Positions 7,037 to 55,068 of a DNA stretch of 64,000 nt are shown piece after piece. A program made the translations under genes and the position numbers. Position 1 is the stretch's first letter. Each line of letters begins with the position of its first letter. The notes beneath the pieces are model-generated. The model worked only from the letters and a program-made list of their open reading frames with translations. It made no database searches and was not told the DNA's origin. The stretch spans positions 4,010 to 68,009 of the forward strand of contig JBDKJS010000083.1 of NCBI GenBank assembly GCA_039806065.1. Direction: 5' to 3'. This DNA comes from Bacteroidota bacterium (GTDB lineage: Bacteria; Bacteroidota; Bacteroidia; AKYH767-A; 2013-40CM-41-45).

Positions 7037-7062
7037 ATATGTTAAGTTAAGTATTTGTTTAA

Positions 7063-9166: not shown

Positions 9167-9178
9167 GGGTAGAGGTAC

Positions 9179-11661: not shown

Positions 11662-11662
11662 A

Positions 11663-12826: not shown

Positions 12827-12835
12827 TGTAATTTA

Positions 12836-14182: not shown

Positions 14183-14189
14183 CAGAATC

Positions 14190-19050: not shown

Positions 19051-19051
19051 T

Positions 19052-19444: not shown

Positions 19445-20355
19445 TAGATTTTGGTAGCTATTCTAAGGTGCGCGCTTCTGGAACGGGGATTTTTTTGTTG
19501 TTCATCAGCAGAGGGCACTATGGGTTTTTTATGGAGTAATTTAAATGAAGATGGCTCTACAGTTCCAAATAACATGGCAGCAGGATCATCTTCAATAGGT
19601 GAGCTTAAAGATCCTTTGGTCATAAATTTTTTAACCATTCTGTCTTCAAGTGAATGATAGGTAAGTACTACTAAACGTGCTCCGGCTTCCATCATTGATT
19701 CACAGTCAAGCAATAAATCTTGAAGCACGGCCAGCTCTTGGTTCACCTCAATTCTAATAGCTTGGAATACCTTAGACCAAAATCCACTTTCATCCCATGG
19801 TGGAGCCAGTGGGGATAAAATTTTTTTTAGGTCATTGATGCTATCTATTGGTTGATTTAACCTAGCGCTAACAATTACATTTACAATGGCTTTACTATTT
19901 TGCAATTCACCATATTCTTTAAAAATTCTAAGCAAATTATCTTCCGTGTATTGATTCAATAAATCCTTTGCATTGAGCTGTTGTGCTCTATTCATCCTCA
20001 TATCTAACAAGGCTTCAAATCGGAAGCTAAAGCCTCTTTCAGCTTCATCAAACTGATGGGAAGAAACGCCCAAGTCAAGCAGCAAGCCGTTAATGGGCAT
20101 TGCATCAAAATATCGAAGATGGTTTTTGATGTACTTAAAATTAGATCTGATTAGTGTAAGTTTTTCATGGGTGAATGCGTTGTCAATGGCATCTTGATCT
20201 TGATCAAAGGCAAATAATCTTCCACTGGCAAGTTGATCCACAATTTTTCTTGAATGGCCTCCGCCACCGAAAGTAGCATCAACAAAAACCCCACCTCTTT
20301 CAAGGTCTAGTGCGAGCACACTTTCATCTAACAAAACTGGTTCATGATAGCTCAT
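19444..20355 (-). CDS. rsmH: 16S rRNA (cytosine1402-N4)-methyltransferase RsmH
   Basis: Conserved N-terminus YHEPVLL...VDATFGGGGHS. Second gene of the dcw cluster. Confidence 0.9.
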   Translation of the reverse strand: MSYHEPVLLDESVLALDLERGGVFVDATFGGGGHSRKIVDQLASGRLFAFDQDQDAIDNAFTHEKLTLIRSNFKYIKNHLRYFDAMPINGLLLDLGVSSHQFDEAERGFSFRFEALLDMRMNRAQQLNAKDLLNQYTEDNLLRIFKEYGELQNSKAIVNVIVSARLNQPIDSINDLKKILSPLAPPWDESGFWSKVFQAIRIEVNQELAVLQDLLLDCESMMEAGARLVVLTYHSLEDRMVKKFMTKGSLSSPIEDDPAAMLFGTVEPSSFKLLHKKPIVPSADEQQKNPRSRSAHLRIATKI

Positions 20356-21941: not shown

Positions 21942-22556
21942 ATGATTGAGCCAATTAAAGAAGCATCATTTGTCATTTCAAGTCCTGAATACACCAAGTG
22001 TCCAAAACCAGATCGGGCAGAATATGCCTTTATAGGCCGAAGCAATGTTGGTAAATCATCGCTCATCAACATGCTCACAGGGGTAAAAGGATTGGCAAAA
22101 ACATCGGCCATGCCAGGTAAAACGCAATTAATCAATCATTTTTTGATTAATAACAGTTGGTTTCTGGTAGATTTACCTGGATATGGATTTGCCAGGATAA
22201 GCAAGGCACAGCGTGAAGTGTTTGAAAGCATGATTAAAAATTATTTGCTCAAACGCAATAATCTCATCAACACTTTTATTCTGATAGATAGCCGCCATGC
22301 ACCACAAGCTATTGATTTGGCATTCATTGAATGGATGGGAACAGTTTCCTTACCGTTTAGTATTGTATTTACCAAGAGTGATAAACTAGGAAAAACCAAA
22401 TTGCAAGAACACACTACAGCTTATAAGAATCAACTCCTTGAAACTTGGGAAGAATTACCACCCATATTTATTACCTCTTCAGAGAAAAAGCTGGGGCGCG
22501 ATGAAATATTAAAATACATAGGCACACTTCATCCTTTATTTACAGCAGATCGCTAA
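21942..22556 (+). CDS. yihA: Ribosome biogenesis GTP-binding protein YihA/EngB
   Basis: [13 protein letters not shown]1 motif, DLPGYG G3 motif, TKSDK G4 motif. Confidence 0.85.
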
Positions 22557-23461
22557 CGGAGGAGCTGAATTTTTTTATTCACTATTGCATTTCCAAATTG
22601 CAGATGAAGGGTGTACCACCCATTTTCCAAGTCTGCTACATCAATTAAATCGGTAGGAGCATTCAATGTAAGGTGTTTTACCTGTCGTCCCAAAAGATCA
22701 GCTATACTGATTTCAGCATGATTAAAGGGAGTACGGATTCCGGTGAATTTAATCCAGTCTCTTGCTGGATTGGGCATTACCTGCACCTGATCAGAAAGGT
22801 TGATGGGAGCTTCACCAACCACACCTTCAAACTTTAAATCATCAAGACGAAGGATCGTTCCTATTTTAGGTGCATTAAACACAATAGGGCTGCTGGTAAT
22901 AAAAATTAATGACGAATCAGGATCCAAATTAGGATTAACATAAATCAGGTTAAGACTGAGTGTATCCCAACCGGTGCTGGTTTTCCCTATTTTTTGAAAT
23001 GCATAAGCCACGGTATCGCGCTTGCCAGTTCCGGCATTGCGCTTAAACAGTTTAATATCAACCCAAGCCGTATCAGTTCCTACAGGTGCATACTGATACA
23101 AGCATTTAAATGTATTCCATTTGGTTCCTGTAGGTTTTCCTCCTATCACCGAAAAGCTTATGCCATTTACAACGATATCGCCATTAGATATGGCAGCCGG
23201 AATAGGGATAGGCACAGTGATTGGGGGTACTATTTTACCAAAAGTAGTTAGTTTTGCTGCTGCCACACCGCTACCTACCGTTACAGTTTCCTTGGTTACT
23301 GATGTAGCATCAAGTGTATCAGTTGTTTTCCAAAATTCTGGCTCTTCATAAGCACCACCACCAGCAGGTATCCAATTTTCATAATCACCATTGGCTATGT
23401 TTTGTGCAGTAATTTGAAGCGATAGATAAAAAGAAAAAATGAGCAACAAATGTTTTTTCAT
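22553..23461 (-). CDS. Secreted protein of unknown function with T9SS C-terminal sorting domain
   Basis: Signal peptide [21 protein letters not shown]-terminal Por-secretion-tail-like module ([12 protein letters not shown]...LLGRQVKHL...). ATG at 23461 chosen. Confidence 0.65.
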
Positions 23462-23506
23462 ACGTAATTGATATTTATTCAAAGGTAAGAATTTATATGG
23501 TAAGGG

Positions 23507-35881: not shown

Positions 35882-36145
35882 ATGGCAAAAAGTAAAGACA
35901 ATTTGTTTTGGTACGCCATTGTATTGGTTTTGTTTATTATAATCTTTACTTCGTTTTTGCAAAGCGGTGGGTTCGTTGCTTCAAGCTCCACCTATGTGAG
36001 CCCAAGCATAGACTACCGTGGGAAGTATAGAAGTGGACATGTAAGAAAAGCAGTTAGTTCATCGCCCAACGCCATACAAAACCGTTTAAAAAACAAAGCA
36101 TACTATGAGAGGCGCGGAAAATACCTTCGAAAGCGAAAGAAATAA
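35882..36145 (+). CDS. Hypothetical small membrane protein with basic C-terminal tail
   Basis: ATG start, one TM helix (WYAIVLVLFIIIFTSFL), then KR-rich tail. Lies in the korA upstream region and may instead be non-coding leader. Confidence 0.3.
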   Translation: MAKSKDNLFWYAIVLVLFIIIFTSFLQSGGFVASSSTYVSPSIDYRGKYRSGHVRKAVSSSPNAIQNRLKNKAYYERRGKYLRKRKK

Positions 36146-36200
36146 TAAAACGGCAAGAAAAAATTTTAACTTTACACAATCTATTAATAGCAAAAAAAAT

Positions 36201-38039
36201 ATGCAGCAACAAAATACCGTACTTGAGCAAGTAATAATAAAATTTGCGGGTGATAGTGGTGATGGCATGCAGCTTACTGGTACCCAGTTTACCAACACGG
36301 CTGCCTTATTAGGCAATGACCTTAGTACATTTCCAGATTTTCCAGCCGAGATTCGTGCCCCACAAGGAACGCTGGCAGGGGTAAGTGGTTACCAATTGCA
36401 CTTCGGTAGTGTAGAAATATTTACTCCAGGCGATCATTGCGATGTATTGGTAGTGATGAATGCTGCAGCGCTAAAGGCCAATTTAAAACAACTAAGAAAA
36501 GGCGGAACAATCATTGCCAACACGGATGGATTTGATCCAAAAAATCTACGACTTGCCGGAGTAAGCGCTAGTGCACTAGAAGATGGTTCGCTTGATGGGT
36601 ATAAACTCATCACCATGGATGTAACCAAAATGACCCGCAATGCACTTCAAGAAAGTGGATTGGGAACGAAAGAAATTGATCGTTCTAAAAACATGTTTGT
36701 ATTAGGTTTTTTATATTGGATGTATAATAGAGACCTTAACCACACCTTACAGTTTCTTACTGAAAAATTTGGCAAGAAAAAAGAAATATTAGATGCTAAT
36801 ATAAAAGTACTACAAGCCGGGTTTAATTTTGGTGAAACAAGAGAGGAATCAGCCTCACGCTATATTGTAAATCCGGCCAAGATAACACCGGGCACTTACC
36901 GCAATATTATGGGAAACCAAGCCACTGCCCTGGGATTAATAGCAGCTGCCGAAAAATCTGGCTTAGAAATGTTCTATGGAACCTACCCTATAACGCCTGC
37001 CAGTGATATTTTGCACGAGCTATCCAAGCACAAAAATTTTGGTGTGAAAACATTTCAAGCTGAAGATGAGATAGCAGCTATATGTAGTGCAATAGGGGCA
37101 TCATTTGGAGGTTCGTTAGGCGTAACTGCAAGTAGTGGCCCTGGGATAGCGCTCAAAACGGAAGCAATGGGATTGGCATTAATGTTGGAGCTACCACTGG
37201 TAATCATTAACGTTCAACGGGGAGGGCCTAGCACCGGATTGCCAACCAAAACAGAACAAAGTGATTTGCTACAAGCATTGTATGGAAGAAATGGAGAAGC
37301 TCCCATTCCCGTTATAGCAGCAGCCACGCCAAGTGATTGCTTCTACATGGCATATGAAGCCTGTAGATTGGCCATCGAATTTATGACACCGGTAATATTA
37401 TTGAGCGATGGATATATTGCCAATGGGGCGGCACCATGGAGGTTTCCACAATCAAAAGATCTAACGCCAATAAAAGTAGAGTTCATTACAGAAAAAAACG
37501 GTGAGCTTAAATATTTACCTTACAAACGAAATGAAAAAAATTCTCGCCCTTGGGCCAAACCAGGCACACCTGGTTTAGAACATAGGATTGGTGGGTTAGA
37601 AAAACAGCACGAAACTGGTAACATAAGCTATGATGCAAACAATCATGAGTTTATGGTTCAATTACGAGAGAAAAAAGTTGAAGGCATTGCTGATTTTATT
37701 CCGGATCAAGAAATGGAAGTAGGTCCAACTACGGGGAAAGTGCTGGTACTAGGATGGGGCGGCACCCAAGGCGCAATAAAGAGTGCTGTGATTAAGGCAA
37801 GGGCTGAAGGTTATGAGGTGAGTCATGCTCACCTTCGGTATATCAAACCATTTCCAAAAAACCTTGGAGCATTACTATATGGTTTTGAAAAAGTAATCAT
37901 TCCCGAACTCAACAGTGGGCAGCTAGTAAAAGTGATACGTGACAAATACATGATACCAGCCATAGCATATAATAAAGTACAAGGTCTTCCCTTCAGTGCT
38001 GAAGAGCTTTACACAGCAATAAAAAATGTCATCCAATAA
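36201..38039 (+). CDS. korA: 2-oxoglutarate/2-oxoacid:ferredoxin oxidoreductase subunit alpha
   Basis: KFAGDSGDGMQLTG start typical of KorA. Internal ATG 36201 chosen. Confidence 0.85.
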   Translation: MQQQNTVLEQVIIKFAGDSGDGMQLTGTQFTNTAALLGNDLSTFPDFPAEIRAPQGTLAGVSGYQLHFGSVEIFTPGDHCDVLVVMNAAALKANLKQLRKGGTIIANTDGFDPKNLRLAGVSASALEDGSLDGYKLITMDVTKMTRNALQESGLGTKEIDRSKNMFVLGFLYWMYNRDLNHTLQFLTEKFGKKKEILDANIKVLQAGFNFGETREESASRYIVNPAKITPGTYRNIMGNQATALGLIAAAEKSGLEMFYGTYPITPASDILHELSKHKNFGVKTFQAEDEIAAICSAIGASFGGSLGVTASSGPGIALKTEAMGLALMLELPLVIINVQRGGPSTGLPTKTEQSDLLQALYGRNGEAPIPVIAAATPSDCFYMAYEACRLAIEFMTPVILLSDGYIANGAAPWRFPQSKDLTPIKVEFITEKNGELKYLPYKRNEKNSRPWAKPGTPGLEHRIGGLEKQHETGNISYDANNHEFMVQLREKKVEGIADFIPDQEMEVGPTTGKVLVLGWGGTQGAIKSAVIKARAEGYEVSHAHLRYIKPFPKNLGALLYGFEKVIIPELNSGQLVKVIRDKYMIPAIAYNKVQGLPFSAEELYTAIKNVIQ

Positions 38040-38078
38040 TTTCACTTATAAAACTGCCACAATATCAAATTAAAATAA

Positions 38079-39104
38079 ATGGAAGCAAGCCTAACACAAT
38101 ATACTTCAAAAGATTTAGCCACTGACCAAGATGTGAGGTGGTGCCCTGGTTGTGGCGATTATTCTATCTTAAAACAAGTTCAAACTGTAATACCAGATTT
38201 GGGAGTACCTCGTGAAAATATTGTTTTCATTAGTGGTATAGGCTGCAGCAGTCGTTTCCCCTATTATATGGAAACCTATGGGATGCACAGCATTCATGGC
38301 AGGGCCACAGCCATTGCAAGTGGCTTAAAGGCGGCTCGTCCAGAATTAAGTGTATGGCTGGTAACTGGCGATGGTGATGCCATGAGTATTGGTGGCAATC
38401 ATTTAATTCATCTATTAAGACGAAACTTTGATATAAACATATTAATGTTTAACAATCAAATATATGGTCTCACCAAGGGGCAATATTCACCCACTTCAGA
38501 GGAGGGTAAGGTTACAAAAAGTACACCCTATGGTTCACTAGATCATCCATTTAATCCATTGGCCCTTTGTATGGGTGCTGATGCAACTTTTGTAGCAAGG
38601 AGCATGGATCGCGATCCAAAGCATCTTCAGGCAATTCTTAAATTAGCCAATGCACATAAGGGAAGTAGCTTCGTAGAAATTTATCAGAACTGCAACGTAT
38701 TTAATGATGGTGCCTTTGAAATTTTCACTGAGAAGAGTAGCAAAAAACTTGAGACGCTTTTTATGGAAAGTGGAAAGCCATTACTATTTGGCGAACAACA
38801 AGAAAAGGGAATTAAGTTAGATGGATTCAAACCCGTAATAGTGGCAATGGATGAAGCAAACAGTGCCAATGATTGCTGGATACATGATGAAACCGATAGG
38901 GTTAAAGCAGGCATTTTAGCACGCTTCTTTGATGATCCAGCTACTGAGGGGCATTTGCCCCGACCATTTGGTGTATTTTACCAAGAGGCTCGTGCGACTT
39001 ATGAGCATAAATTAGCAGCACAAGTTACACAAACAACAGAAGCTAAAGGGAAAGGTGATTTAGACAAGTTGCTTCGGGGCCGTGAAACTTGGACCATTCA
39101 ATAA
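38079..39104 (+). CDS. korB: 2-oxoglutarate/2-oxoacid:ferredoxin oxidoreductase subunit beta (TPP-binding)
   Basis: WCPGCGD N-terminal Cys motif. TPP-binding GDGD...N region. Confidence 0.85.
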   Translation: MEASLTQYTSKDLATDQDVRWCPGCGDYSILKQVQTVIPDLGVPRENIVFISGIGCSSRFPYYMETYGMHSIHGRATAIASGLKAARPELSVWLVTGDGDAMSIGGNHLIHLLRRNFDINILMFNNQIYGLTKGQYSPTSEEGKVTKSTPYGSLDHPFNPLALCMGADATFVARSMDRDPKHLQAILKLANAHKGSSFVEIYQNCNVFNDGAFEIFTEKSSKKLETLFMESGKPLLFGEQQEKGIKLDGFKPVIVAMDEANSANDCWIHDETDRVKAGILARFFDDPATEGHLPRPFGVFYQEARATYEHKLAAQVTQTTEAKGKGDLDKLLRGRETWTIQ

Positions 39105-39349: not shown

Positions 39350-40798
39350 ATGCTATTCAGCTCATTAGTATTTCTATTTTTGTTTCTACCACTAACGCTG
39401 GCAGGCTACTATATAGTAAGCAAGCAAATAAAAAACTATTGGTTGCTACTAGCAAGTTTGGTATTTTTTGCTTGGGGTGGAATCAGCTTTACATTGATAC
39501 TGATAGGCTCTATTATTTTTAATTATACCATTGGTTTATTGATTCAAAAAAAGATTGAAAGTAGGGCTGGGTGTAATTGGTTGGTATTGGGTGTGGGCAT
39601 AAATTTATTGTGTTTGGCCATTTTTAAGTATTCCGATTTTTTAATTAGTAACTTGAATAAAGTAAATTCCTTTTTCTCACTTCCTCAGGCCAAACAGGCA
39701 AACATTGCGCTGCCAATTGGTATTTCGTTTTACACTTTCCATGCACTGTCTTACTTGGTAGATATTTACCGTAAGAAATCACTTGCGCAGCGTAATATTT
39801 TTGATTTAGCGCTATATATCAGCATGTTTTCTCAGTTAATAGCAGGCCCCATAGTTCGGTATAGCGATGTGTGGAACCAGCTCAGGGAAAGAATACACTC
39901 ATTAGCTAAATTTTCATCTGGAGTAGAGCGGTTTATAATTGGTTTAGGGAAAAAGGTACTCTTGGCAAATACATTTGGGCGAACTGCCGACTTGTTTTTC
40001 AGTAGCGATCTCTCAAATTTGGGTTATGTAAATGCATGGTTAGGAATTATATGTTACACCCTTCAAATTTATTACGACTTTGCTGGCTATTCTGATATGG
40101 CTATAGGATTAGGAAGAATGTTTGGATTTGAATTTTTAGAAAATTTTAATTTTCCATACGTGGCAAAATCGATTAAAGAGTTTTGGAGAAGGTGGCATAT
40201 TTCCTTGTCAACTTTTTTTAGAGATTATGTTTACATTCCTTTGGGTGGCAACCAAACTTCGACAAAAAAAACTTATTTGAATTTAATAATTGTTTTTTTT
40301 CTTACTGGTTTTTGGCACGGGGCTAGTTGGAATTTTATTCTTTGGGGAATGTTTCACGGTTTTTTTATGTTAATTGAAAAGATGGGATTAGAAAGGTTGC
40401 TACAAAAGACTTGGAGGCCAATTTCGATCTTTTATACTTGGTTGGTGGTGATGTTTGGTTGGGTGCTCTTTAGGGTTGACTATACCAAGCAAGCATGGCA
40501 ATATTGGAAAGAAATGTTTGATTTTAACTTTACCGATGAACAATACCTATTATTAATCAACCAACTGAACATTGAATTTTTTCTCGTCTTCAGTATAGGG
40601 TTATTGGGTTCATTGGGATTTTTTAAATATGTAGCTTCAGAAGTTCCAAAGTGGATAAAAATAGAATCGAAAAGTGGCAGGTGTTTGGTCTATACTTACC
40701 ACCTTACAGCGGTAATTATGTATGCTACCATTTTTATTTTATGTACGCTTTATTTAGTTGCGGGAACTTACAATCCATTTATTTACTATCGTTTTTGA
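39350..40798 (+). CDS. MBOAT family membrane-bound O-acyltransferase (AlgI/DltB/PatA-like)
   Basis: Polytopic membrane protein. Conserved catalytic His in FWRRWHISLSTFFRDYVY. Confidence 0.85.
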   Translation: MLFSSLVFLFLFLPLTLAGYYIVSKQIKNYWLLLASLVFFAWGGISFTLILIGSIIFNYTIGLLIQKKIESRAGCNWLVLGVGINLLCLAIFKYSDFLISNLNKVNSFFSLPQAKQANIALPIGISFYTFHALSYLVDIYRKKSLAQRNIFDLALYISMFSQLIAGPIVRYSDVWNQLRERIHSLAKFSSGVERFIIGLGKKVLLANTFGRTADLFFSSDLSNLGYVNAWLGIICYTLQIYYDFAGYSDMAIGLGRMFGFEFLENFNFPYVAKSIKEFWRRWHISLSTFFRDYVYIPLGGNQTSTKKTYLNLIIVFFLTGFWHGASWNFILWGMFHGFFMLIEKMGLERLLQKTWRPISIFYTWLVVMFGWVLFRVDYTKQAWQYWKEMFDFNFTDEQYLLLINQLNIEFFLVFSIGLLGSLGFFKYVASEVPKWIKIESKSGRCLVYTYHLTAVIMYATIFILCTLYLVAGTYNPFIYYRF

Positions 40799-40801
40799 TC
40801 C

Positions 40802-41977
40802 ATGAATTATAATTTTTTTAGGGCTATTCTAATGGTGAGTATATTTTTATTACTCATTTTATTTCCTTTGCTCAATGACACTTTTCACTTAATTAAAGAT
40901 TTTGAAAATACTGAGAATCGTAAGGTTGCTTCACTTCCGGCATTCAATATTGAATTATTAGATCCTTATCCAATTGAATTTAACAATTTCTATACTGATA
41001 ATTTCACTATAAGACATAGGCTGATTAAATATTACAATCATTTAAATTTAAAATACTATAAAAAATCGCCACTGCCCAATCAAGTATTAATTGGGAAAAA
41101 TAGTTGGTTGTATTTGGTAGGGAATGAAGTTAATTGCTTTAGAGGCAAACAGCCCTTTACTGAGGCGGAGTTAAAAACGCTTAAATCAGAGTTTGAATAT
41201 CGCCAGCAATATTTAGCCACTTTAAACTGTAAATTTTATTTATTAATTGCTCCTGTAAAGGCCAGTATTTATCCTGAAAATTTACCATTAGGTATGATTC
41301 GTTTAATGGGGCTATCATGGGGAGAGCAATTGAATAACTACTTAAGTAAAAATAGCACGGTAAAAACAATTGATTTATTTACTGCGCTTAGATCTAATAA
41401 ATCTGATGGGTTAAATTATTACATGTTAGATAACCATTGGAATCAAAAGGGGGGAATGATAGCTGCCCAAGAGGCGCTTCGCATGGTAAAGAAAGATTTG
41501 TTACCATTGGATACTATCAACCTAGCCGATTATGAATTAAAGGATTCCATGGTGAATAGTGGCAACTTGGCCATGATGCTTTCAAACACAAAGATATTTA
41601 ATGATAGCGTGTTTTATTACCATCCCGTTCATGGTTATCAATCGGTAGAAAAAGAAAAAGTGGGTTATCCTCCTGTGGATCAATTTGCCTATGCATCAGA
41701 ATATGAATATGTGCGTGAAACAAAGGGGGATAAAAAATTAAAGCTCTTAATGATTTCAGATTCTTTTGGTGCCAATATTTTCACCTTCCTTTCTGAGAGT
41801 TTTGGGCGGAGTGTAAAAATTTTTGATGCCTGGCAGTACAAGTTGAATGAAAACATTGTGGCAGCAGAAAAACCTGATGTAGTCATGGTGGTTGCTTTAG
41901 AATCGAACATAAAGAACTTGCTTCGTTATTTATCCAATAAAAATGTTGGTGATAGCATACAAGTGAATGCAAACTAA
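40802..41977 (+). CDS. DHHW-motif (AlgJ/AlgX-like, SGNH-fold) O-acyltransferase partner protein
   Basis: N-terminal TM anchor. LDNHWNQKG matches the D-x-H-W motif of AlgJ-family proteins. 3-nt gap to the MBOAT gene. Confidence 0.7.
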   Translation: MNYNFFRAILMVSIFLLLILFPLLNDTFHLIKDFENTENRKVASLPAFNIELLDPYPIEFNNFYTDNFTIRHRLIKYYNHLNLKYYKKSPLPNQVLIGKNSWLYLVGNEVNCFRGKQPFTEAELKTLKSEFEYRQQYLATLNCKFYLLIAPVKASIYPENLPLGMIRLMGLSWGEQLNNYLSKNSTVKTIDLFTALRSNKSDGLNYYMLDNHWNQKGGMIAAQEALRMVKKDLLPLDTINLADYELKDSMVNSGNLAMMLSNTKIFNDSVFYYHPVHGYQSVEKEKVGYPPVDQFAYASEYEYVRETKGDKKLKLLMISDSFGANIFTFLSESFGRSVKIFDAWQYKLNENIVAAEKPDVVMVVALESNIKNLLRYLSNKNVGDSIQVNAN

Positions 41978-42124
41978 CGGTGATGTAATATTTTAAGCCA
42001 TGTTGAACGGTGCTTTGACTGTGCTACTAGCCCCGATAGTAGCGGACTGCCCTTCAGCTAGCTGAAGGCAGGGAGCGAATAGCGGGAATGGTAGGTTGAA
42101 GAGGTGCGTTAGGGTGCTGCTCCA

Positions 42125-43467: not shown

Positions 43468-44379
43468 TTAAAATGCAAAGCCAGCATTAATTCCGGCCAC
43501 TGTACTTCGTGTGAGGCCATCAGGCCTTGCTTGCCTTACAGTCAATGGCGCAGCGATGAAGGCTTGAAGCCGGATTTTGTTTGAGGGCTGAAAGCCCAAT
43601 TGGATATTGGCATTGAGGGTGAGGCCTTTGCTACCATTTATTGTTTCTCGGTTTTTATCTAAGTTAAGATAAGTGTCATTGGCAATGTGGTAAATGGGCA
43701 ACAGTGAAGGTGTGATGCTCCATTTTGTAGTTAGTGATTGGCGCCATGCCATTCGGAGAAGTAAGTCTGCTGCTCGGTTAAATTGATTGGTACTGTTAAA
43801 CGCCACTATTTGGTTAAATTGAATTTGATTGATGGCAAGGTAGGAGTTTTTATTTTGTGTGAGTGGCTGCTGAAAGCCTAATGTTAATTCCAAATTACGA
43901 TAATTGTATATATAGCTTAATAATAAATCAAATGTTCCTAATGAAGACTGGTAATCCATTGGTAAGGGGGCATTCTGCCTGGTTCTATTTGCATTGTTAG
44001 CGGGGACTTTAATCCCTAAAATAAATTGATGCCGCTGGGAGGTGCGGTATTGGTAATTAAAAATAAGATCTGATAGGCCTGAAAGGGAAATATTGTTCCC
44101 GGTTTGATTAATGGCGCTAACCTTAGTAGCTATGGTATGGTATTGATTAATTTTATAGGCGTATTCCAGATGAATGGTTGTGGCAGTAATATTATTATCA
44201 GCCTGGCCAATAACAGCGCCTATACTAAGCAGGTGGGCATGCTGCACAGTGTCTTCATGATGTGATTGGGTGCCGGGCATGGTACAAAGGCCAGCATCGC
44301 TGCAGCCTTGTGCCTTTGCAGTATGGAATGCGAGCAGGCTAAGGCAAGTAAAACATGTGATTAGGGTAAGTAATTTCAT
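43468..44379 (-). CDS. Putative outer-membrane beta-barrel protein with Cys/His-rich N-terminal segment
   Basis: Signal peptide. Mature N-terminus QGCSDAGLCTMPGTQSHHEDTVQHAH. Alternating amphipathic strands. C-terminal aromatic residue (..GFAF). Confidence 0.5.
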   Translation of the reverse strand: MKLLTLITCFTCLSLLAFHTAKAQGCSDAGLCTMPGTQSHHEDTVQHAHLLSIGAVIGQADNNITATTIHLEYAYKINQYHTIATKVSAINQTGNNISLSGLSDLIFNYQYRTSQRHQFILGIKVPANNANRTRQNAPLPMDYQSSLGTFDLLLSYIYNYRNLELTLGFQQPLTQNKNSYLAINQIQFNQIVAFNSTNQFNRAADLLLRMAWRQSLTTKWSITPSLLPIYHIANDTYLNLDKNRETINGSKGLTLNANIQLGFQPSNKIRLQAFIAAPLTVRQARPDGLTRSTVAGINAGFAF

Positions 44380-44383
44380 AGAG

Positions 44384-44419
44384 ATAAAAAAAGAGCAGCT
44401 TGTATTAGCTGCTCTTTTA
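44384..44419 (-). terminator. Rho-independent terminator after the lysyl-oxidase-like gene
   Basis: Perfect 12-bp stem AAAAGAGCAGCT/AGCTGCTCTTTT with a 6-nt loop, followed on the minus strand by T7. Confidence 0.65.
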
Positions 44420-44435: not shown

Positions 44436-46781
44436 TTAATTTTTAGCGAATTTAGCTGTGCCTATTTTATTTCCATCATTCAAGAGGATGTAATAAATTC
44501 CTTGTGAAAGATTGCTAACATCAGCAGTGTACCAATTATTAGCACCAGGAACTATGGCTACACTAATGGCGCGGCCTGCTGCATCATACACATTTAGGCT
44601 TGTGAGCTTTTTATCAAGATTGCCAAGATTAATTTTAATCTGATCTTTAGCCGGATTAGGCTGAATGGCTATGGTTATTTGTTTTACATAATTAGGCAAT
44701 GCAGTGGGTACAACATTTAGGCAGCCTCCGGTTACTTGATGTAAGGTTTGCTCGCTATTGTGATTGATGACATCAGTAATACTGCTAATACAAACGGTGC
44801 TATCTATGATTGCATTGTAGTAAACGCGAACCAGCGGTTGCATATTAGGCGATCTATTAAGTGCACTATCGGGTATTGAAAGACCAAATATTTGATTGGT
44901 TCCATTGATATTAAAAGTACTAACTGGATAATCATTAACATCAGCAAGGCTAACTACTCCAGAAATGGTGATCCCACTCATGGTAAATTGGTATGCTTTA
45001 ATATCGGCAGAAGGGGAAGTAATACCAATATCAACATAACCAGCACTTGTATTTATTCCCATGATGCTCAGGCTCACGGTATCGTATGGGTTGGTGATGT
45101 TGCGAGGGAAATTGCAATAGTTAGCAATGACTACCCCAGGGAAATTGGTGTGATTTTGGGCGCGGCACCAGTTAGCTAGCTGTGCGTCATAAACAGTGAG
45201 CGATCCATCGCCATTTAAATCATTGCAAGATGCAGGGGTAGTAGCATTGGCTTCAATTAAACTACCGTAAGTTGCTACATCCGTTTCATCAAGAGATTGG
45301 TCTACATACACATCGCCATATTTAGCAGCGCCATTACATACGCCATTACAATCTACTTGAGCTAGGCCGCCCGGAATTCCCGCACAATCCACGTAAGGAG
45401 TACAACCCGGAAGGAAGGAGAAACTAGGAACGCCATTAGCATTTCTTAAAATTCTGATACAAATCTGGAGGGCATTATTGGCAAAGTTCATTTCCATTCT
45501 ACCGAGAGCATCAGGCAGATTATATTGGTTTACTGCAACTGCCATTCTATAATCACCATCGGGGACATCCGTTACATCAAGCCACTGACATTGTGTGCCG
45601 GCACCATACACATCGTAACAACCTGAAGAGATTCCCATGTTTCCACAAGTATATTGCCCGCTACCACAAAGATCCATCACGCAAAAACCATTTTTATGAC
45701 CGGCTGGAATTAAATTTCCATCCATATCGTATAATCTATAATCACCATAGCCTGAGTAGTGGGTGTGATTGTGGCAATTCACCGTATTAAACATTCCGGG
45801 ATTTGCATTAGGATTTCCGATATAATAATCTTGGGTGCCTACATTATCAATTTTAGAAGAGAATCGCAATACATAGCGTTGCCCATATCCTGTAACACAG
45901 CCTTCATTTACATCGCAGCCACTAGTGGTGTGTGTAGTTATGCTCATACTTTGTACCAAAGCCAGTGAATCAAATTTTAAGTCTGGACCACTGCAAATAG
46001 GGTTTGGTGGATAGGCGCAGCTACCATCATCTATTACAGCAAGCGGATTGTAGTTACATGCGGTTACGTCCATACAACCTTGAATGGGCCCTGTATAGGA
46101 TAAATTAAAGTTGATGGCCCCAGCGCAATCATTGTTAAAATCGCCAATACGAATATAGTAAGTGGTGCCAGCAGCGAGGGCTACATTTAACACTGCTTGT
46201 GTGCCACAGGCGCCATCATCATTGAAAGCATAAGTACCTGGAGGACCATCTACATAAGGGGGGGGAGGACAGTTGGAATAAACATAAACTGAAGTATTGC
46301 AAGAGTTGGTGCCACAAGTAGAAATATTAAAGTTACCGGTAGTATCAGCAGTAAAAACATACCAAGTTTCATCTAGGTTAGTAGTGGAGCTGCCATAGTT
46401 TAATGGGATTGGGTTGGTACAATAAGTTCCTGCTGGACAATTCAGCGGCACAGTCATACTGGCTCCAAAAGCATTTCCCGAACCAATTACAGCGCCATCA
46501 AGATAAACCCAAAAACCACCCGGGGCATATATGCCATCGCCAAACTGATCATAGATAGTAAATGTTACACAGTCATTTTCTGGAATACAAATAGTATCAC
46601 CAATTTCATTCCCATTGGCAATTACAGTACCATTAAAATCATTTAGTGACCATGTGGTTTCATAGGCCCAAGCATCAGGTACTATTTGAATAATAACCTC
46701 TTTTGTACCGGCACCACACTGCGCCTGCAGTTGTACAAAAGCCATGCATAAGCAGCAAAATAAAAATAGATGTTTTTTCAT
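44436..46781 (-). CDS. Secreted Cys-rich lysyl oxidase (LOX/LTQ copper amine oxidase) domain protein with dockerin-like Ca-binding loop and T9SS C-terminal sorting domain
   Basis: Signal peptide. LOX catalytic-domain motifs RYVLRFSSKIDNVGTQDY, CHNHTHY (His-x-His-x-His copper site), GHKNGFCVMD (LTQ lysine) and GCYDVYGAGTQCQWLDVTDV. DLNGDGSLTVYD EF-hand/dockerin-like loop. C-terminal Por secretion tail. Confidence 0.8.
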   Translation of the reverse strand: MKKHLFLFCCLCMAFVQLQAQCGAGTKEVIIQIVPDAWAYETTWSLNDFNGTVIANGNEIGDTICIPENDCVTFTIYDQFGDGIYAPGGFWVYLDGAVIGSGNAFGASMTVPLNCPAGTYCTNPIPLNYGSSTTNLDETWYVFTADTTGNFNISTCGTNSCNTSVYVYSNCPPPPYVDGPPGTYAFNDDGACGTQAVLNVALAAGTTYYIRIGDFNNDCAGAINFNLSYTGPIQGCMDVTACNYNPLAVIDDGSCAYPPNPICSGPDLKFDSLALVQSMSITTHTTSGCDVNEGCVTGYGQRYVLRFSSKIDNVGTQDYYIGNPNANPGMFNTVNCHNHTHYSGYGDYRLYDMDGNLIPAGHKNGFCVMDLCGSGQYTCGNMGISSGCYDVYGAGTQCQWLDVTDVPDGDYRMAVAVNQYNLPDALGRMEMNFANNALQICIRILRNANGVPSFSFLPGCTPYVDCAGIPGGLAQVDCNGVCNGAAKYGDVYVDQSLDETDVATYGSLIEANATTPASCNDLNGDGSLTVYDAQLANWCRAQNHTNFPGVVIANYCNFPRNITNPYDTVSLSIMGINTSAGYVDIGITSPSADIKAYQFTMSGITISGVVSLADVNDYPVSTFNINGTNQIFGLSIPDSALNRSPNMQPLVRVYYNAIIDSTVCISSITDVINHNSEQTLHQVTGGCLNVVPTALPNYVKQITIAIQPNPAKDQIKINLGNLDKKLTSLNVYDAAGRAISVAIVPGANNWYTADVSNLSQGIYYILLNDGNKIGTAKFAKN

Positions 46782-46990: not shown

Positions 46991-49495
46991 TTGAAATTAC
47001 TGTTTAAAGTATTAAAATGGACATCACTTGCTTTTGGGGTAGGCATTGTACTGCTAATATTGGCTAGTTGGTTGTTTGAATCGAGCATTAATAAATTAGT
47101 GATTAACCAGGTGAATAAAACATTAGCTGTACCCATAGCAGTGGATCAGGTATCGCTATCGCTATGGCGCCATTTCCCTTATGCTGCTGTGCAACTAACA
47201 GATGTGAGCATGGAAGGGACTCTAGGCCAAAAGGATAAGCCGTTATTGAAGGCGGGCAGCGTGTCATTGCTTTTTGACCTTAGTGCACTTTGGAATAATT
47301 CGATAAATTTTAAAAAAATTATTTTGAGGGATGGGATGGTGAATATTTGCTTTGATCAACAAGGGAAGGACAACTATCACTTTTGGAAAACAGATACTAC
47401 GGCCAATAGCAGTACTAACTTATCGCTTCAGGAAGTGATATTAGAACAAATGCAAATTGGCTATGACCACCCCAAGCTTGTTCAATCGGTTTTGGTTTTC
47501 ACTGATAGACTAAAGCTCAAAGGGAGTTTGGCGAATGAGGTTTTTAACATGGAGGCAGTTGGGGCATTGGTAGTAAAAAAGTTAAACGTAGCATCCCAAC
47601 ATTTTTTGAAGGAGCAGCAATTAGAGATAGAACTGAACATAAAAAATGATAATCAAAAGCATGTTTTTGAGTTTAAAAAATCAGTTGTCAGTATCAAAGA
47701 TTTATCCTTAATACTTAGTGGAAAGATAAAGTATGAACCGGTGATTAGTTATGAGTTAGCAATAAATAGTGCCGAAGCATCGCTTGGAGCATTATTAGCA
47801 TTACTTCCCGGGGTTGATGTTTCTTTCTTGCAAAAAATAAATGCTACAGGTCAAATTAAATCCAACAGCACCATTACCAGTAACCATCAGAGTCAAGGCC
47901 TCCTGATAAACACCCTATTTGAGGTTAGTGATGGAGCCATAGCGCCACCAGAAAGTAAGGAGTCCTTAACTGCAATTAATGGAAGCGGAAAATTTATTTG
48001 GAATATTGAAACTGGAGGATCATTGCATATAAACAAGCTAAAGGCACAAGCAGGATCAAATCCACTGGAGGCATCTTTGAGTATCCAAAATTTTAAAAAT
48101 CCCATTTTAAAACTTTATTTACGAACGGCTATAGAACTATCACTACTCAAACCTTGGCTTCGCAATCAAAGCATCAGCGATCTTTCAGGAAAACTCATAG
48201 CCGATATTAATTACAATGGCCCAATAGCCAATATTAAGCAACAGCTAGCCGACCATAGTTACACCAACCATGCATCAGGGACCATCCAACTAAGGGATGT
48301 TTCTATTTCCATTGCAAATAACCATTTGGCGTACAATAGAATCAACGGGCACTTTAAGCTTAACAACCACAATCTAGAAATAGTGCAGTTAAGTGGATAT
48401 GCTGGCAGTACGGATGTGATGATTACTGGTGAAATGAAAAATTTTTTAGCTTATTTGCTATTGCCCAATCAGCACATTGAATGTGATGGGAGTATCAATA
48501 GCCAACACCTGTTTTTGGATGAGTGGTTAACTAATTATGGGGCCAGTTCCAATAACGAAACTGCCTATAAATTAAAAATTAGTGATAGAATAAAAGCCAA
48601 CCTAGCCATCAGCATAGGTAAGCTTACCTTTAGAAAATTTGAAGCTGCACGCATCAGCGGTCAACTTTCTCTTACCAACCAAATAATCAGAGGGCAACAA
48701 TTAAAATTTGCGGCCATGCAGGGTTTAATTGGTATGGATGCAGTAATAAGTGCAGAAAGCGAAGATGATATTATAACAAAATGCGATGCTGCCATCACTA
48801 ATTTAGACATAACCCAATTATTTTACCAATTAGAAAATTTTGATCAACAAACACTCACAGATAAAAATTTAAAAGGAAAGGTTGATGCTGCTGTTAGTTT
48901 TAGCAGCCATTGGACACCAGCACTTGACAATATGCCTGCAAGTACCCAAGCAGGGATATCACTCACCATTCGAAATGGTGAGCTAAATAATTTTGCTCCA
49001 ATACAAGCTATGAGCAAGTACTTAAAATTAGCTGACTTAAAAAACATCAGGTTCAACACCTTGAAAAATAATATATCAATAAGCAATAGAAAAGTATACA
49101 TTCCGCAAATGGAAATAGCCAGCAGTGCAATCAACATTACAGCTAGCGGGGTACATGATTTTGACAATAATGTAGATTATAGCATTAAATTATTACTTAG
49201 TGATGTGTTGGGGAAAAAAGCCAAATCTTCCATAACCGAATTTGGGGCCATTCAAGATGATGGACTAGGCAGATCTCAGTTATTTTTAAGCATGAAAGGC
49301 AAAGTGGATGATCCAAAGTTTAGCTACGATAGAAAAGCAGTAGCCGAAAAAATAAAAGTGGACGTGGCCAAAGATGCCACCAATATTAAGAATGCATTAA
49401 AAGAAGATTTTAATCTTTTGAAAGGGAAACAAAATAAAACAACCAACCCCCCATCAAAAAAGGAAGAGCTAGAATTAGACTTAGAAGAGGAGTAG
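46991..49495 (+). CDS. AsmA-family protein (N-terminal membrane anchor, large periplasmic beta-rich domain)
   Basis: N-terminal TM helix, about 830 aa, acidic C-terminal tail. TTG start. Confidence 0.5.
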   Translation: MKLLFKVLKWTSLAFGVGIVLLILASWLFESSINKLVINQVNKTLAVPIAVDQVSLSLWRHFPYAAVQLTDVSMEGTLGQKDKPLLKAGSVSLLFDLSALWNNSINFKKIILRDGMVNICFDQQGKDNYHFWKTDTTANSSTNLSLQEVILEQMQIGYDHPKLVQSVLVFTDRLKLKGSLANEVFNMEAVGALVVKKLNVASQHFLKEQQLEIELNIKNDNQKHVFEFKKSVVSIKDLSLILSGKIKYEPVISYELAINSAEASLGALLALLPGVDVSFLQKINATGQIKSNSTITSNHQSQGLLINTLFEVSDGAIAPPESKESLTAINGSGKFIWNIETGGSLHINKLKAQAGSNPLEASLSIQNFKNPILKLYLRTAIELSLLKPWLRNQSISDLSGKLIADINYNGPIANIKQQLADHSYTNHASGTIQLRDVSISIANNHLAYNRINGHFKLNNHNLEIVQLSGYAGSTDVMITGEMKNFLAYLLLPNQHIECDGSINSQHLFLDEWLTNYGASSNNETAYKLKISDRIKANLAISIGKLTFRKFEAARISGQLSLTNQIIRGQQLKFAAMQGLIGMDAVISAESEDDIITKCDAAITNLDITQLFYQLENFDQQTLTDKNLKGKVDAAVSFSSHWTPALDNMPASTQAGISLTIRNGELNNFAPIQAMSKYLKLADLKNIRFNTLKNNISISNRKVYIPQMEIASSAINITASGVHDFDNNVDYSIKLLLSDVLGKKAKSSITEFGAIQDDGLGRSQLFLSMKGKVDDPKFSYDRKAVAEKIKVDVAKDATNIKNALKEDFNLLKGKQNKTTNPPSKKEELELDLEEE

Positions 49496-52044: not shown

Positions 52045-54108
52045 ATGACCAAACAATTGATGACCTTCACCAATCGTGATATTAGCTGGCTATCATTTAA
52101 TGAAAGAGTATTACAAGAAGCGGCCAATGAAACAGTACCACTATTAGAAAGACTTCGTTTTTTAGGAATTTATTCAAGTAACAGGGATGAGTTTTTCAGG
52201 GTGCGAATAGCTACCCTACAGCGCACCTTAAAACTAGGAATCAAAGGCCATAAAATAATGGGAGAGCCGCCAGAGCAATTGCTCGAACGATTGGAGCAAA
52301 TAATGTTAACTCAACAGCAAAATTTTAATAAAATATATAAAGAATTAATTGCAACGCTTGCTAGTCATAAAATTGTTTTGATTGATGAAAAAAAGTTGGA
52401 TGCCAAGCAAGACCTTTTTGTAAGAAATTACTTTCATGAAACGGTGTATCCAAGGCTGGTGCCAATTATGCTCAGTGGGTTGAATAAATTTCCATACCTA
52501 CGCGACAAATCCATTTACTTCTTCATCAATCTTGTTGGATTGTCGGCTACTGAAAAGCCAAATTATGCATTGGTAGAAATTCCCAGTAGTGTAGTGCCAC
52601 GTTTTTTGATAATCCCTGGAAATGAAAGTCATTCATCACTCATCTTTCTAGACGATGTAATACGACATTGCCTAAAAGATATTTTTTCCATTTTTAAATT
52701 CAAGCGAATTGAAGCCTTTAGCTTTAAGATAACGCGCGATGCCGAACTCGATTTTGAGACTGATGTAAGTAAAAGTTTAGTAGAAAAAATTTCGCGTAGC
52801 ATTAAAAAAAGGAAAACAGGCGAACCGGTGAGGTTAGCATATGATGTGGCCATGCCTAAAGAAATGTTGGTTTACTTAAAACGTCATTTAAAAGGAGCAA
52901 AGCAATATTCCCTCATGCCAGAAGGCCGATATCTAAATATGAAAGACCTGCTCACCTTTCCATCAGAAATTGGTGAGCGGCTGCGCTATCAAAAGTTAAG
53001 GCCAACACAGCATCCAGCTTTAAATAATAGCAACAGTAAATTGCGTGCAATCGAGCTGCAAGATGTGCTATTGTGCTATCCCTATCAAAGTTATAATCAC
53101 ATCTTGGACATACTGCGTGAAGCAAGCATAGCGCCCTCTGTTAAAAGTATCAAAATAACACTCTATCGGGTAGCCCCAGTTTCAAGTATTGTGCACACAC
53201 TCATCAATGCTGTAAAGAATGGGAAGCAAGTAACAGCAGTAGTAGAATTGCAAGCCAGGTTTGATGAAGAAGCTAATATTTATTGGGCCAACAAACTTAA
53301 AGAAGAGGGTGCCAATGTGATCTATGGGGTGCCAGGTCTCAAGGTACATAGCAAGCTTTTTATTATTACCGCAAAAGAAAAAGGTAAGACAATCCTTTAC
53401 TCACATATTGGCACCGGCAATTTTAATGAAGACACGGCCAAAGTTTATGTTGACCATGCCTTACTAACCAGCAATAAAACCATCGGACAAGAGGTAAACC
53501 TTCTATTTGATTTTTATCAGAACAATTTCAAAACTGGTAAGTATGAAAAGCTTTTGGTGGCACCCTTTAGCATGCGCACCAATTTATTACAATTTATAAA
53601 AAGGGAAACCAAGCATGCCCTTTCTGGAAAAAAGGCACACATCATCTTAAAAATGAATAGCCTCAGTGATCCCGAAATGATGCAAGCCTTAAGCAAAGCA
53701 TCAGCATCAGGTGTAAAGGTTCAGTTGATCATCCGTGGAATATGTTGCCTAGGTTCAGAAAAGGCTTCCCGTTCAAATATAAGCAGCATCAGCATAGTTG
53801 ATAAATATTTAGAACATAGTCGAATTTTTTATTTTTTCAATGACGGCAAGCCACGTTACTACCTATCGTCAGCTGATTTAATGGGCCGCAACCTCGATTT
53901 CAGAAGTGAAGTGGCAGTGCCTATCGAAGATGATGCTATTAGAAAGCAACTAATGGACTATTTACATTATCAACTTCGTGATAATGTAAAAGCAAGGCTG
54001 CTGAATGGTAACAATGAATTTGTACCCCCACTGCCACTGAGCAAGCGGTTCAGAAGCCAAGATGAACTCTATTTATATTTTAAACAACGGGAACGAATAA
54101 AAAAATAA
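52045..54108 (+). CDS. ppk: Polyphosphate kinase 1
   Basis: N-terminal RDISWLSFNERVLQEA. Two PLD-like HKD-type regions (VHSKLFII, HIGTGNFN). Confidence 0.9.
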   Translation: MTKQLMTFTNRDISWLSFNERVLQEAANETVPLLERLRFLGIYSSNRDEFFRVRIATLQRTLKLGIKGHKIMGEPPEQLLERLEQIMLTQQQNFNKIYKELIATLASHKIVLIDEKKLDAKQDLFVRNYFHETVYPRLVPIMLSGLNKFPYLRDKSIYFFINLVGLSATEKPNYALVEIPSSVVPRFLIIPGNESHSSLIFLDDVIRHCLKDIFSIFKFKRIEAFSFKITRDAELDFETDVSKSLVEKISRSIKKRKTGEPVRLAYDVAMPKEMLVYLKRHLKGAKQYSLMPEGRYLNMKDLLTFPSEIGERLRYQKLRPTQHPALNNSNSKLRAIELQDVLLCYPYQSYNHILDILREASIAPSVKSIKITLYRVAPVSSIVHTLINAVKNGKQVTAVVELQARFDEEANIYWANKLKEEGANVIYGVPGLKVHSKLFIITAKEKGKTILYSHIGTGNFNEDTAKVYVDHALLTSNKTIGQEVNLLFDFYQNNFKTGKYEKLLVAPFSMRTNLLQFIKRETKHALSGKKAHIILKMNSLSDPEMMQALSKASASGVKVQLIIRGICCLGSEKASRSNISSISIVDKYLEHSRIFYFFNDGKPRYYLSSADLMGRNLDFRSEVAVPIEDDAIRKQLMDYLHYQLRDNVKARLLNGNNEFVPPLPLSKRFRSQDELYLYFKQRERIKK

Positions 54109-54162
54109 TTTAGGTGACCACAATTTTTCGAAAGAGGTTATATTAGTGGAAAATTTTTTAAA

Positions 54163-55068
54163 TTGAAATTTGCAGCCATTGATATAGGATCCAATGCCGT
54201 TCGACTGTTATTTGGTTATGTGATAGAAACCAACCATGGTCCTGAATTTACAAAAGCAGAGCTGATCAGAATCCCTTTGCGACTAGGCGAAGATGCGTTC
54301 ATTCACCACAGGATAGGTCCAATGCTAGAAGAAAAGTTTATCAATGTAATGCAGGCATTTAAATTACTAATTGATGCTTACGGAGCCATTAGCTACCGTG
54401 CATGTGCCACCAGTGCCATGCGTGAAGCTGAAAATGCGCCAGCCATTATCCAAAAAGTAGCAGATCGTTGTGGTCTAAAGATAGAAATTATCAGCGGTCG
54501 AATAGAAGCTGAAACAATTTATGCCAACCATGTAGCAGAGCATTTAGATCCTGCCAATGCCTACCTTTATATTGATGTGGGCGGTGGCAGCACTGAGCTC
54601 ACCTTATTTCATCAAAACCAAACAATAGCTTCCAAATCATTTGATGTGGGCACCATTAGGTGGTTGCACCAAATGGTGAGTAAGGAATATTGGGCAGCAG
54701 TAAAATCATGGGTAAGAACGGTAACAGCTGAACATGCCCCCCTGGTAGCCATAGGTTCAGGTGGCAACATTAATAAAATATTTAAAATGTTGGGGCGTAA
54801 AGAAAATAAGCCACTCACTTACACAAAATTACGAGAGTTGTATGATTATTTAAAAGCCTTTACTGTTGAGGATCGAATACGCCTGCTCGGACTTCGGCCT
54901 GATAGAGCCGATGTGATAGTACCGGCTGCAAAAATCTTTTTAAGCATTATGAAGCACGCACAAATAGAAAAAATAATAGTACCGCAGATAGGCTTAAGCG
55001 ATGGATTAATTCACCAGCAATATGAAGCCTATAAAATAAGTAGAGCTGCCAATCCACACCCACTATAA
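54163..55068 (+). CDS. ppx: Exopolyphosphatase / guanosine pentaphosphate phosphohydrolase (Ppx/GppA family)
   Basis: FAAIDIGSNAVRLL ASKHA start. DVGGGSTEL motif. TTG start. Confidence 0.85.
   Translation: MKFAAIDIGSNAVRLLFGYVIETNHGPEFTKAELIRIPLRLGEDAFIHHRIGPMLEEKFINVMQAFKLLIDAYGAISYRACATSAMREAENAPAIIQKVADRCGLKIEIISGRIEAETIYANHVAEHLDPANAYLYIDVGGGSTELTLFHQNQTIASKSFDVGTIRWLHQMVSKEYWAAVKSWVRTVTAEHAPLVAIGSGGNINKIFKMLGRKENKPLTYTKLRELYDYLKAFTVEDRIRLLGLRPDRADVIVPAAKIFLSIMKHAQIEKIIVPQIGLSDGLIHQQYEAYKISRAANPHPL

Follow-up and report, generated by a model that had tools for sequence, protein, structure and literature searches.

What kind of enzyme does the gene at 44436-46781 of this Bacteroidota DNA encode, and on what substrates would it act outside the cell? 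The DNA analyzed here, called the window below, is a 64-kb stretch of contig JBDKJS010000083.1 (assembly GCA_039806065.1). An earlier note had proposed that this open reading frame (ORF) encodes a lysyl oxidase (LOX) homolog sorted by the type IX secretion system (T9SS). The ORF was recognized on the minus strand with exactly these ends, and all the peptide strings quoted for the proposal were located in its translation: CPPPPY (aa 171-176, inside the second N-terminal domain, D2), RYVLRFSSKIDNVGTQDY (aa 302-319), CHNHTHY (aa 336-342), GHKNGFCVMD (aa 361-370), and GCYDVYGAGTQCQWLDVTDV (aa 387-406). An identical protein with the same neighbors is encoded on a Logan contig (SRR27422815). The assignment of the gene product as a homolog of secreted copper amine oxidases, belonging to the lysyl oxidase family in Bacteroidota, is supported by its sequence. 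It is quite likely a T9SS-exported LOX that oxidizes amines, preferably macromolecule-bound ones such as peptidyl lysine, with resulting cross-links.

The family alignment and the profile built from it comprise the window protein and 31 homologs (32 sequences). The structure models were generated with AlphaFold2 on this alignment, and they show discrete domains with a mean predicted local distance difference test score (pLDDT) of 76.7. The Pfam lysyl oxidase profile PF01186, on which the proposal could be judged, matched aa 297-441 with 91.9 bits (gathering cut-off 20.4; E = 5.6e-26), spanning profile positions 47-191 of 204, and it matched all of the 32 family sequences. The sole protein matched by phmmer in the PDB was human LOXL2 (5ze3_A, E = 1.4e-18). 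The family profile matched the same structure with E = 1.1e-28, and the alignment reached LOXL2 residues 541-730, in the LOXL2 numbering in which the 5ZE3 construct begins at residue 318. The modeled region has the LOX catalytic-domain fold.

The residues of LOXL2 for metal binding, for the lysine tyrosylquinone (LTQ) cofactor, for Ca2+ binding, and for disulfides were defined in the structure paper (PMC5899467). The earlier note had equated short motifs of the window protein with the copper-binding histidines and the LTQ segment, and this correspondence held in the profile alignment, where the His triad, the LTQ lysine, and the LTQ tyrosine all align exactly with LOXL2 (Table 1). The predicted LTQ precursors are found in the contexts G-H-K (K363) and C-x-D-x-Y (Y392), for which the phmmer and profile alignments agree. 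H337, H339, and H341 are invariant in the 32 aligned sequences, and CHxHxH is present in all of the 149 cluster representatives nearest to the LOX domain. Residues E430, N432, N435, and N436 align with Glu722, Asp724, Asn727, and Asn728 of LOXL2. Five of the six Ca2+-site residues are identical to those of LOXL2, the difference being Asn (N432) for Asp724. The five identical residues, E430, N435, N436, D267, and L268, are invariant in the alignment, while N432 and C372 are each kept in 90% or more of the sequences.

The cysteines of the domain follow the same correspondence. C289, C295, C336, C367, C379, C388, and C398 align exactly with Cys 573, 579, 625, 657, 673, 685, and 695 of LOXL2, and C372 is one residue off Cys663. 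C441 and C460 lie just beyond the alignment end, with a spacing resembling that of Cys732/Cys746. The disulfides of LOXL2 are 573-625, 579-695, 657-673, 663-685, and 732-746 (PMC5899467), and the pairings in the window protein would probably follow this framework. The mature protein contains 32 cysteines in total, all invariant or nearly so, which is consistent with an extracellular, oxidizing location. The LOX core is the best-conserved region of the family (71% mean pairwise identity), as expected for an enzyme under selection. Judged from its residues, the LOX domain holds every sequence feature known to be required for LOX catalysis.

Table 1. Positions in the window of the LOX-family gene, the parts of its product, and the adjacent hairpin.
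Feature	Residues (aa)	Position	Strand	Basis or remark
T9SS-sorted lysyl-oxidase-family precursor	1-781	44436..46781	-	complete 781-aa ORF plus stop, ATG start
Sec signal peptide (MKKHLFLFCCLCMAFVQLQAQ)	1-21	46719..46781	-	read from sequence
D1, N-terminal beta-sandwich	22-115	46437..46718	-	motif D-x-[FY]-G-D-G-I; AlphaFold2
D2, beta-sandwich, PPC / collagenase collagen-binding-domain fold	116-235	46077..46436	-	contains CPPPPY
Cys motif 1	236-262	45996..46076	-	begins CMDVTACNYNPLAVIDDGSC (aa 236-255)
Lysyl oxidase catalytic domain	263-460	45402..45995	-	
D267/L268, completing predicted Ca2+ site	267-268	45978-45983	-	LOXL2 Asp549/Leu550
Copper-binding His triad H337-N-H339-T-H341	337-341	45759..45773	-	LOXL2 His626/His628/His630 (Cu/Zn ligands)
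K363, predicted LTQ lysine	363	45693..45695	-	LOXL2 Lys653; invariant in 32 sequences
Y392, predicted LTQ tyrosine	392	45606..45608	-	LOXL2 Tyr689; invariant in 32 sequences
Ca2+-site segment E430-M-N432-F-A-N435-N436	430-436	45474..45494	-	LOXL2 alignment
Cys motif 2 (DCAGIPGGLAQVDCNGVCNG)	461-484	45330..45401	-	
Dockerin-like two-helix Ca2+-loop module	485-542	45156..45329	-	sub-threshold Dockerin_1
Cohesin-fold beta-sandwich	556-690	44712..45116	-	
T9SS type-A C-terminal sorting domain	705-781	44439..44669	-	PF18962, TIGR04183
Intrinsic-terminator-like hairpin		44389..44418	-	terminator scan; 12-bp stem then T-run; 18 nt past LOX stop

Both export signals proposed for the protein were recovered. 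The N-terminal segment, as read from the sequence, is hydrophobic over aa 1-21, with a basic N-terminus, a hydrophobic core, and an A-x-A-like end. The position of this signal peptide is conserved while its sequence is variable (27% pairwise identity), and all homologs start with equivalent hydrophobic N-termini. A lipoprotein was considered and rejected; by inspection, the residues preceding the invariant C22 vary (QAQ, YAV, QTT, NAT), and a lipobox is unlikely. The Por-secretion C-terminal sorting domain (CTD) was matched by PF18962 at aa 708-777 with 46.9 bits (cut-off 27; E = 3.3e-12) and by TIGR04183 with 39.1 bits (cut-off 23). It is located at the extreme C-terminus and has the CTD fold.

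A second gene for a T9SS cargo with a type-A CTD is present in the window at 22553-23482 (-). It encodes 309 aa, with 34.8 bits for PF18962 and 24.8 bits for TIGR04183, and its N-terminal 230 residues lack any family match. This ORF and a Flavo-1 RNA, described below, support a Bacteroidota host.

A search with the full protein against 5.8 billion clusters gave 909 matches. The best 120 of these 909 are nearly all about 770-810 aa long and show 42-57% identity over 81-100% of the query; all of them carry PF01186, and nearly all carry PF18962 too. The nearest relative outside the window protein's own cluster is 57% identical. Relatives are encoded in 247 GTDB species-representative genomes, and the best 80 of the 247 are all uncultured Bacteroidota metagenome-assembled genomes (MAGs), recovered from lakes and rivers, from glacier-fed streams, and from activated sludge. 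When the LOX domain alone was used as a query, 2,448 of 1.84 billion 50%-identity representatives were matched at E ≤ 1e-3, of which 265 also passed E ≤ 1e-30. Larger relatives are T9SS proteins in which this core is joined by PKD, HYR, MAM, and GBD_T9SS_assoc domains, and in some of them the Pfam Cu-binding_MopE motif is repeated as many as 15 times.

The LOX domain is numerically rare yet forms a well-populated clade. The description of these domains as rare in bacteria is therefore right in numbers; as a statement about what was known it is not, because Grau-Bove et al. reported LOX from Bacteroidetes and four other bacterial phyla in 2015, mostly in simple architectures (PMC4448552). The architecture itself is also already annotated automatically in the NCBI and JGI databases, and its novelty as a kind had been overstated. 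MDQ3051818.1 (lysyl oxidase family protein [Bacteroidota bacterium]) and MCC6252210.1 (T9SS type A sorting domain-containing protein [Bacteroidia bacterium]) are full-length orthologs, and homologs at JGI are named "Lysyl oxidase/Secretion system C-terminal sorting domain". The auto-annotated orthologs are about 780 aa long and 50-55% identical to the window protein, with the same domain order and invariant residues. The further statement that no T9SS LOX has been characterized agrees with our literature searches, in which lysyl oxidase combined with type IX secretion or Bacteroidetes returned no functional study. The window LOX is a new sequence in a family already catalogued and auto-annotated. 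The present analysis confirms the Cu, LTQ, Ca2+, and disulfide framework residue by residue, recognizes the PPC/CBD-fold and cohesin-fold modules, and assigns the flanking Cys motifs to the core unit. It also places the gene, standing alone, in its chromosomal context and shows the family to be concentrated in uncultured freshwater and wastewater Bacteroidota.

The LOX core is embedded among accessory modules. Cys motif 1 has the consensus CxDxxACNYNPLAxxDDGSC (67% mean pairwise identity); in 108 of the 149 diverse LOX representatives it precedes the His motif by about 100 aa. Cys motif 2, with the consensus DCxGIPGGxAxxDCNGxCNG (66%), is found about 130 aa downstream in 117 of the 149. Cys motif 1 is modeled with low AlphaFold2 confidence and belongs to no Pfam family. 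The flanking Cys motifs accompany the LOX core across architectures of 479 to 2,284 aa, and from this sequence pattern the motif-LOX-motif arrangement is treated as a conserved unit. These motifs were also compared with the Cys-rich repeats in the horizontal gene transfer papers by Daugavet et al., which are eukaryotic beta-defensin-like and unrelated.

The N-terminal half begins with two beta-sandwiches. The AlphaFold2 sub-model of aa 22-235 has a pLDDT of 91.3. D1 matches no Pfam family and is present in 68 of 80 related loci. About 12 of the 80, mostly labeled Flavobacteriales, lack D1, their match starting only at residue 106-118; loci L071-L080 are among the architectural variants of the 780-aa family. 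A homolog of 1,036 aa (P0117) contains a tandem duplication of the module D1-D2-Cys-motif. D2 was compared with the clostridial collagenase collagen-binding domain (CBD)/PPC superfamily (ColG s3a-s3b 5IKU and 1NQD, ColH 3JQW, Bacillus anthracis 5SV5). It has the PPC/CBD beta-sandwich fold, with only 10-16% identity. The Pfam PPC profile PF04151 reached 11.9 bits, below the gathering cut-off of 25.9, and it showed a weak match in only one of the 32 members.

The C-terminal half contains a dockerin-like and a cohesin-fold module. The dockerin/EF-hand-like loop noticed earlier is present as the canonical loop D521-L-N-G-D-G-S-L-T-V-Y-D532 (DLNGDGSLTVYD, aa 521-532), while Dockerin_1 (PF00404) itself scored 14.4 bits, below its cut-off of 22.9. 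The other loop, around D489-D500, is degenerate, and the predicted helices are at 499-511 and 530-541. Sub-threshold matches to Dockerin_1 were observed in 10 of the 32 members (best E = 0.0017), and the family profile weakly matches the dockerin structures 2vn6_B, 1daq, and 2mte (E 0.14-0.76). The segment of aa 556-690 has a cohesin beta-sandwich fold. At E ≤ 1, none of the 32 members matched a Pfam cohesin family, and a sequence search of the PDB with aa 556-700 matched no structure. Membership of the cohesin or PPC families at the sequence level was thus rejected, since the profiles are unsupportive and the folds alone agree. The cohesin-fold and PPC/collagen-binding-fold modules were absent from the earlier note. 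The PPC/CBD-fold, dockerin-like, and cohesin-fold modules show 43-52% identity across the family.

The only prokaryotic LOX with characterized activity found in the literature search is the archaeal enzyme of H. turkmenica (HTU-LOX). It is an active, Cu-dependent amine oxidase sensitive to beta-aminopropionitrile and accepts lysine-containing polypeptides; its broad specificity extends to taurine, glycine, gamma-aminobutyric acid, aminoglycosides, and polymyxin, and the role its authors suggest is to scavenge nitrogen from atypical amines or to act on antibiotics (PMC6452851). The window protein shares with it the prokaryotic origin, the PF01186 match, and the signal peptide. Compared by description, HTU-LOX is simpler, consisting of a signal peptide, a short autoinhibitory N-terminal stretch, and the LOX domain, and unlike the window protein it lacks a T9SS CTD and accessory folds. 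Compared with animal LOX and LOXL1-4, for which human LOXL2 (5ZE3, PMC5899467) is the reference, the window protein is only 24-28% identical to LOXL2. It lacks SRCR domains and a propeptide; instead it has the PPC/CBD-fold, dockerin-like, and cohesin-fold modules, the two Cys motifs, and the T9SS CTD. The gene is bacterial, no collagen or elastin substrate is apparent, and one Ca2+ ligand differs, as described above. The Ig-like CTD of about 75 aa is shared with T9SS type-A cargo, such as mirolase of Tannerella forsythia (CTD structures 8qb1, 8glk, 8glj, and 5jvk), whereas the cargo of the window protein is an oxidase, not a protease, glycosidase, nuclease, or adhesin. In contrast to cohesin-dockerin systems, non-cellulosomal ones among them (Clostridium perfringens GH33 cohesin 2VO8, Archaeoglobus fulgidus 2XDH, Clostridium thermocellum 1OHZ), the putative modules here share one polypeptide, have no scaffoldin context, and are recognized at the fold level or below profile thresholds.

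A route from precursor to active enzyme can be drawn from these features. It starts from what was established here: the protein is a LOX homolog that keeps the residues for catalysis, metal sites, and disulfides, it has the folds predicted above and a sorting signal, and its gene stands alone. From LOX and T9SS biology we infer that the cofactor forms and that the protein is secreted to the surface, as well as its class of substrate and any cross-linking. The Sec signal peptide would bring the precursor to the periplasm, where the 32 conserved cysteines could form up to 16 disulfides. Ca2+ would be bound by D267, L268, E430, N432, N435, and N436, and Cu(II) by H337, H339, and H341. With copper and O2, Y392 would be oxidized and cross-linked to K363, generating the LTQ cofactor as in animal LOX. 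The T9SS translocon would recognize the type-A CTD and the CTD would be removed at the surface, after which the enzyme may be released or anchored to the outer membrane. Outside the cell, primary amines and O2 would be converted to aldehydes, ammonia, and H2O2. Peptidyl lysines of surface, matrix, or captured proteins would be oxidized in this way, and the aldehydes would condense into cross-links. Speculatively, the dockerin-like and cohesin-fold pair may mediate Ca2+-dependent self-association or docking of a partner. Macromolecular amines are favored as substrates because the core is always flanked by binding-type modules, including the PKD, HYR, MAM, and galactose-binding-like adhesin modules in larger relatives.

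Several points weigh against this account. The relaxed specificity of HTU-LOX, which also oxidizes small amines (PMC6452851), means that the catalytic domain itself does not imply a macromolecular substrate. No conserved partner gene was found near LOX in the window and 80 related loci, and no (Gly-X-Y) run of at least 8 repeats was found in any frame in the window and 81 loci; with neither a collagen-like ORF nor a conserved partner, no candidate substrate is encoded alongside LOX. The PPC, cohesin, and dockerin assignments are at the fold level or sub-threshold, and these folds are generic beta-sandwiches. AlphaFold2 confidence inside the LOX core is moderate, with a pLDDT below 50 for the loop 367-379. 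T9SS machinery genes were not seen within the 64-kb window, and no published biochemistry was found for any member of the Bacteroidota/T9SS LOX family.

Part of these points can be turned into a different account, in which the same enzyme, exported in the same manner, acts on small soluble amines such as free lysine, polyamines, amino sugars, and cationic peptide or aminoglycoside antibiotics. The benefit would be ammonium for nitrogen scavenging, H2O2 against competitors, or antibiotic inactivation, with no role in cross-linking. This proposal is tentative, and it is nearly as plausible as macromolecular substrates because HTU-LOX is promiscuous and no substrate is co-encoded. The breadth of the sole characterized prokaryotic LOX (PMC6452851) is in line with it, as is the distribution of the family. 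Freshwater, river, glacier-stream, and activated-sludge MAGs, in which the family is concentrated, represent habitats where dissolved organic nitrogen matters, and no substrate protein is encoded near LOX. Soluble-amine roles of this kind belong to the non-homologous LodA/GoxA quinoprotein oxidases of Marinomonas and to phytoplankton cell-surface amine oxidases. A scavenger, however, is not obviously in need of a conserved 780-aa multi-module architecture, whose modules keep the identity given above, and the adhesin-type modules of the relatives would likewise be unneeded. In addition, neither an ammonium or amine transporter nor an aldehyde dehydrogenase is consistently linked in the 80 related loci. 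Oxidation of macromolecule-bound amines could also be extended to an entire extracellular cross-linking system, with self-assembly at the surface through the dockerin-like and cohesin-fold modules, targeting to protein polymers through the collagen-binding fold, and conversion of peptidyl lysine to allysine. Such a complete system is unlikely. If true, it would mean covalent hardening of a bacterial matrix or sheath, or immobilization of prey or particle proteins, and it would be a prokaryotic counterpart, possibly the evolutionary source, of extracellular-matrix cross-linking in animals.

The abundance of binding-type folds, the giant adhesin-like proteins among the relatives, and the moderate model confidence in the LOX core would also suit a pseudoenzyme, that is, a non-catalytic LOX module in a T9SS adhesin in which the binding domains alone act. 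Pseudoenzymes typically lose catalytic residues. Here, the catalytic residues of LOXL2 are invariant, and the metal and disulfide residues nearly all so, in the 32 sequences; the His motif is retained in all of the 149 representatives, and the core is more conserved than any other region. The presence of all catalytic sequence features argues strongly against a pseudoenzyme, which is considered very improbable. Even less credible, to the point of being nearly negligible, is the idea that an animal or another eukaryote recently donated the gene, or that eukaryotic DNA contaminates the assembly. Animals are the best-known source of LOX, transfers of LOX between domains have been proposed (PMC4448552), and the GC content of the gene (0.413) is slightly above the window mean (0.381); the neighboring 2-kb segments, however, are similar (0.41-0.42). 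The gene carries a bacterial T9SS CTD and a Sec signal peptide and has ordinary bacterial genes on both sides. Its full-length orthologs, 47-57% identical, occur in at least 247 Bacteroidota genomes at the species level, against the low identity to LOXL2. A mobile-element or foreign origin was rejected in view of the division and cell wall (dcw) cluster, the housekeeping genes, and the absence of a compositional break. The dcw cluster, gltX, ppk/ppx, a tRNA, and the Flavo-1 RNA in the window, together with this even composition, indicate a Bacteroidota chromosomal backbone.

Lysyl oxidases are central to the biology of the animal extracellular matrix and are drug targets, while their prokaryotic relatives are almost unstudied. 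The family described here is abundant: hundreds of uncultured Bacteroidota from freshwater and wastewater encode full-length, strongly conserved members. With its near-complete LOXL2-type active-site, Ca2+, and disulfide framework and its abundance, it could offer a tractable bacterial system for studying LTQ biogenesis, a question left unsettled by the sole LOX crystal structure, which shows a Zn-bound precursor. It could also supply secretable protein-cross-linking or amine-oxidizing biocatalysts, and it could inform the question of a bacterial versus eukaryotic origin of LOX. An exported enzyme releasing NH3 and H2O2 could matter for the turnover of dissolved organic nitrogen or for microbial antagonism. 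Current understanding is not overturned; LOX in Bacteroidetes has been known since 2015, and annotation pipelines already label it correctly.

The LOX gene stands alone. The hairpin listed in Table 1 separates it from the next ORF, which starts at 44379, and the gene upstream is divergent; the LOX gene is thus monocistronic. Its immediate neighbors are a 303-aa ORF, an acyl-CoA dehydrogenase gene, and an 834-aa ORF, none of which is found beside LOX in the 80 related loci. Unbiased clustering of the flanking ORFs revealed no family in more than 17 of the 80 loci. The 303-aa ORF directly downstream, at 43468-44379 (-), has a signal peptide, a Cys pair near the N-terminus (GCSDAGLC), and a C-terminal Phe as in outer-membrane beta-barrels, and is also present on the Logan contig. 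It was rejected as a partner of LOX, having no Pfam or NCBIfam match, a strong terminator in between, and no counterpart at any of the 80 related loci. The divergent 834-aa ORF at 46991-49495 (+) has an N-terminal transmembrane segment and no Pfam match. Its only match, weak and sub-threshold at 25.7 bits against 50, is to a GspN-type model, and it could be an envelope protein of the AsmA-like kind.

The Flavo-1 RNA (Rfam RF01705, scoring 53.2 bits where the gathering cut-off is 42), a marker of Bacteroidota/Flavobacteria, is located at 42025-42093 (+), in the intergenic region between an AlgX-like gene and the acyl-CoA dehydrogenase gene. Adjoining MBOAT (AlgI-like) and AlgX-like SGNH genes at 39350-41977 (+) suggest a polysaccharide O-acetylation module. 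At 36105-39104 (+), two adjoining ORFs carry POR/POR_N/PFOR_II and TPP_enzyme_C domains and resemble the subunit pair of a 2-oxoacid:ferredoxin oxidoreductase. The genes at 52045-55068 (+) encode PPK1 polyphosphate kinase (four domains) followed by a Ppx/GppA phosphatase, a pair for polyphosphate metabolism. The full dcw cluster extends over 5516-20355 (-) and includes genes for RsmH/MraW, an FtsI-type penicillin-binding protein with PASTA, a MurE-like ligase, MraY, MurD, FtsW, MurG, a MurC-like ligase, FtsA, and FtsZ.

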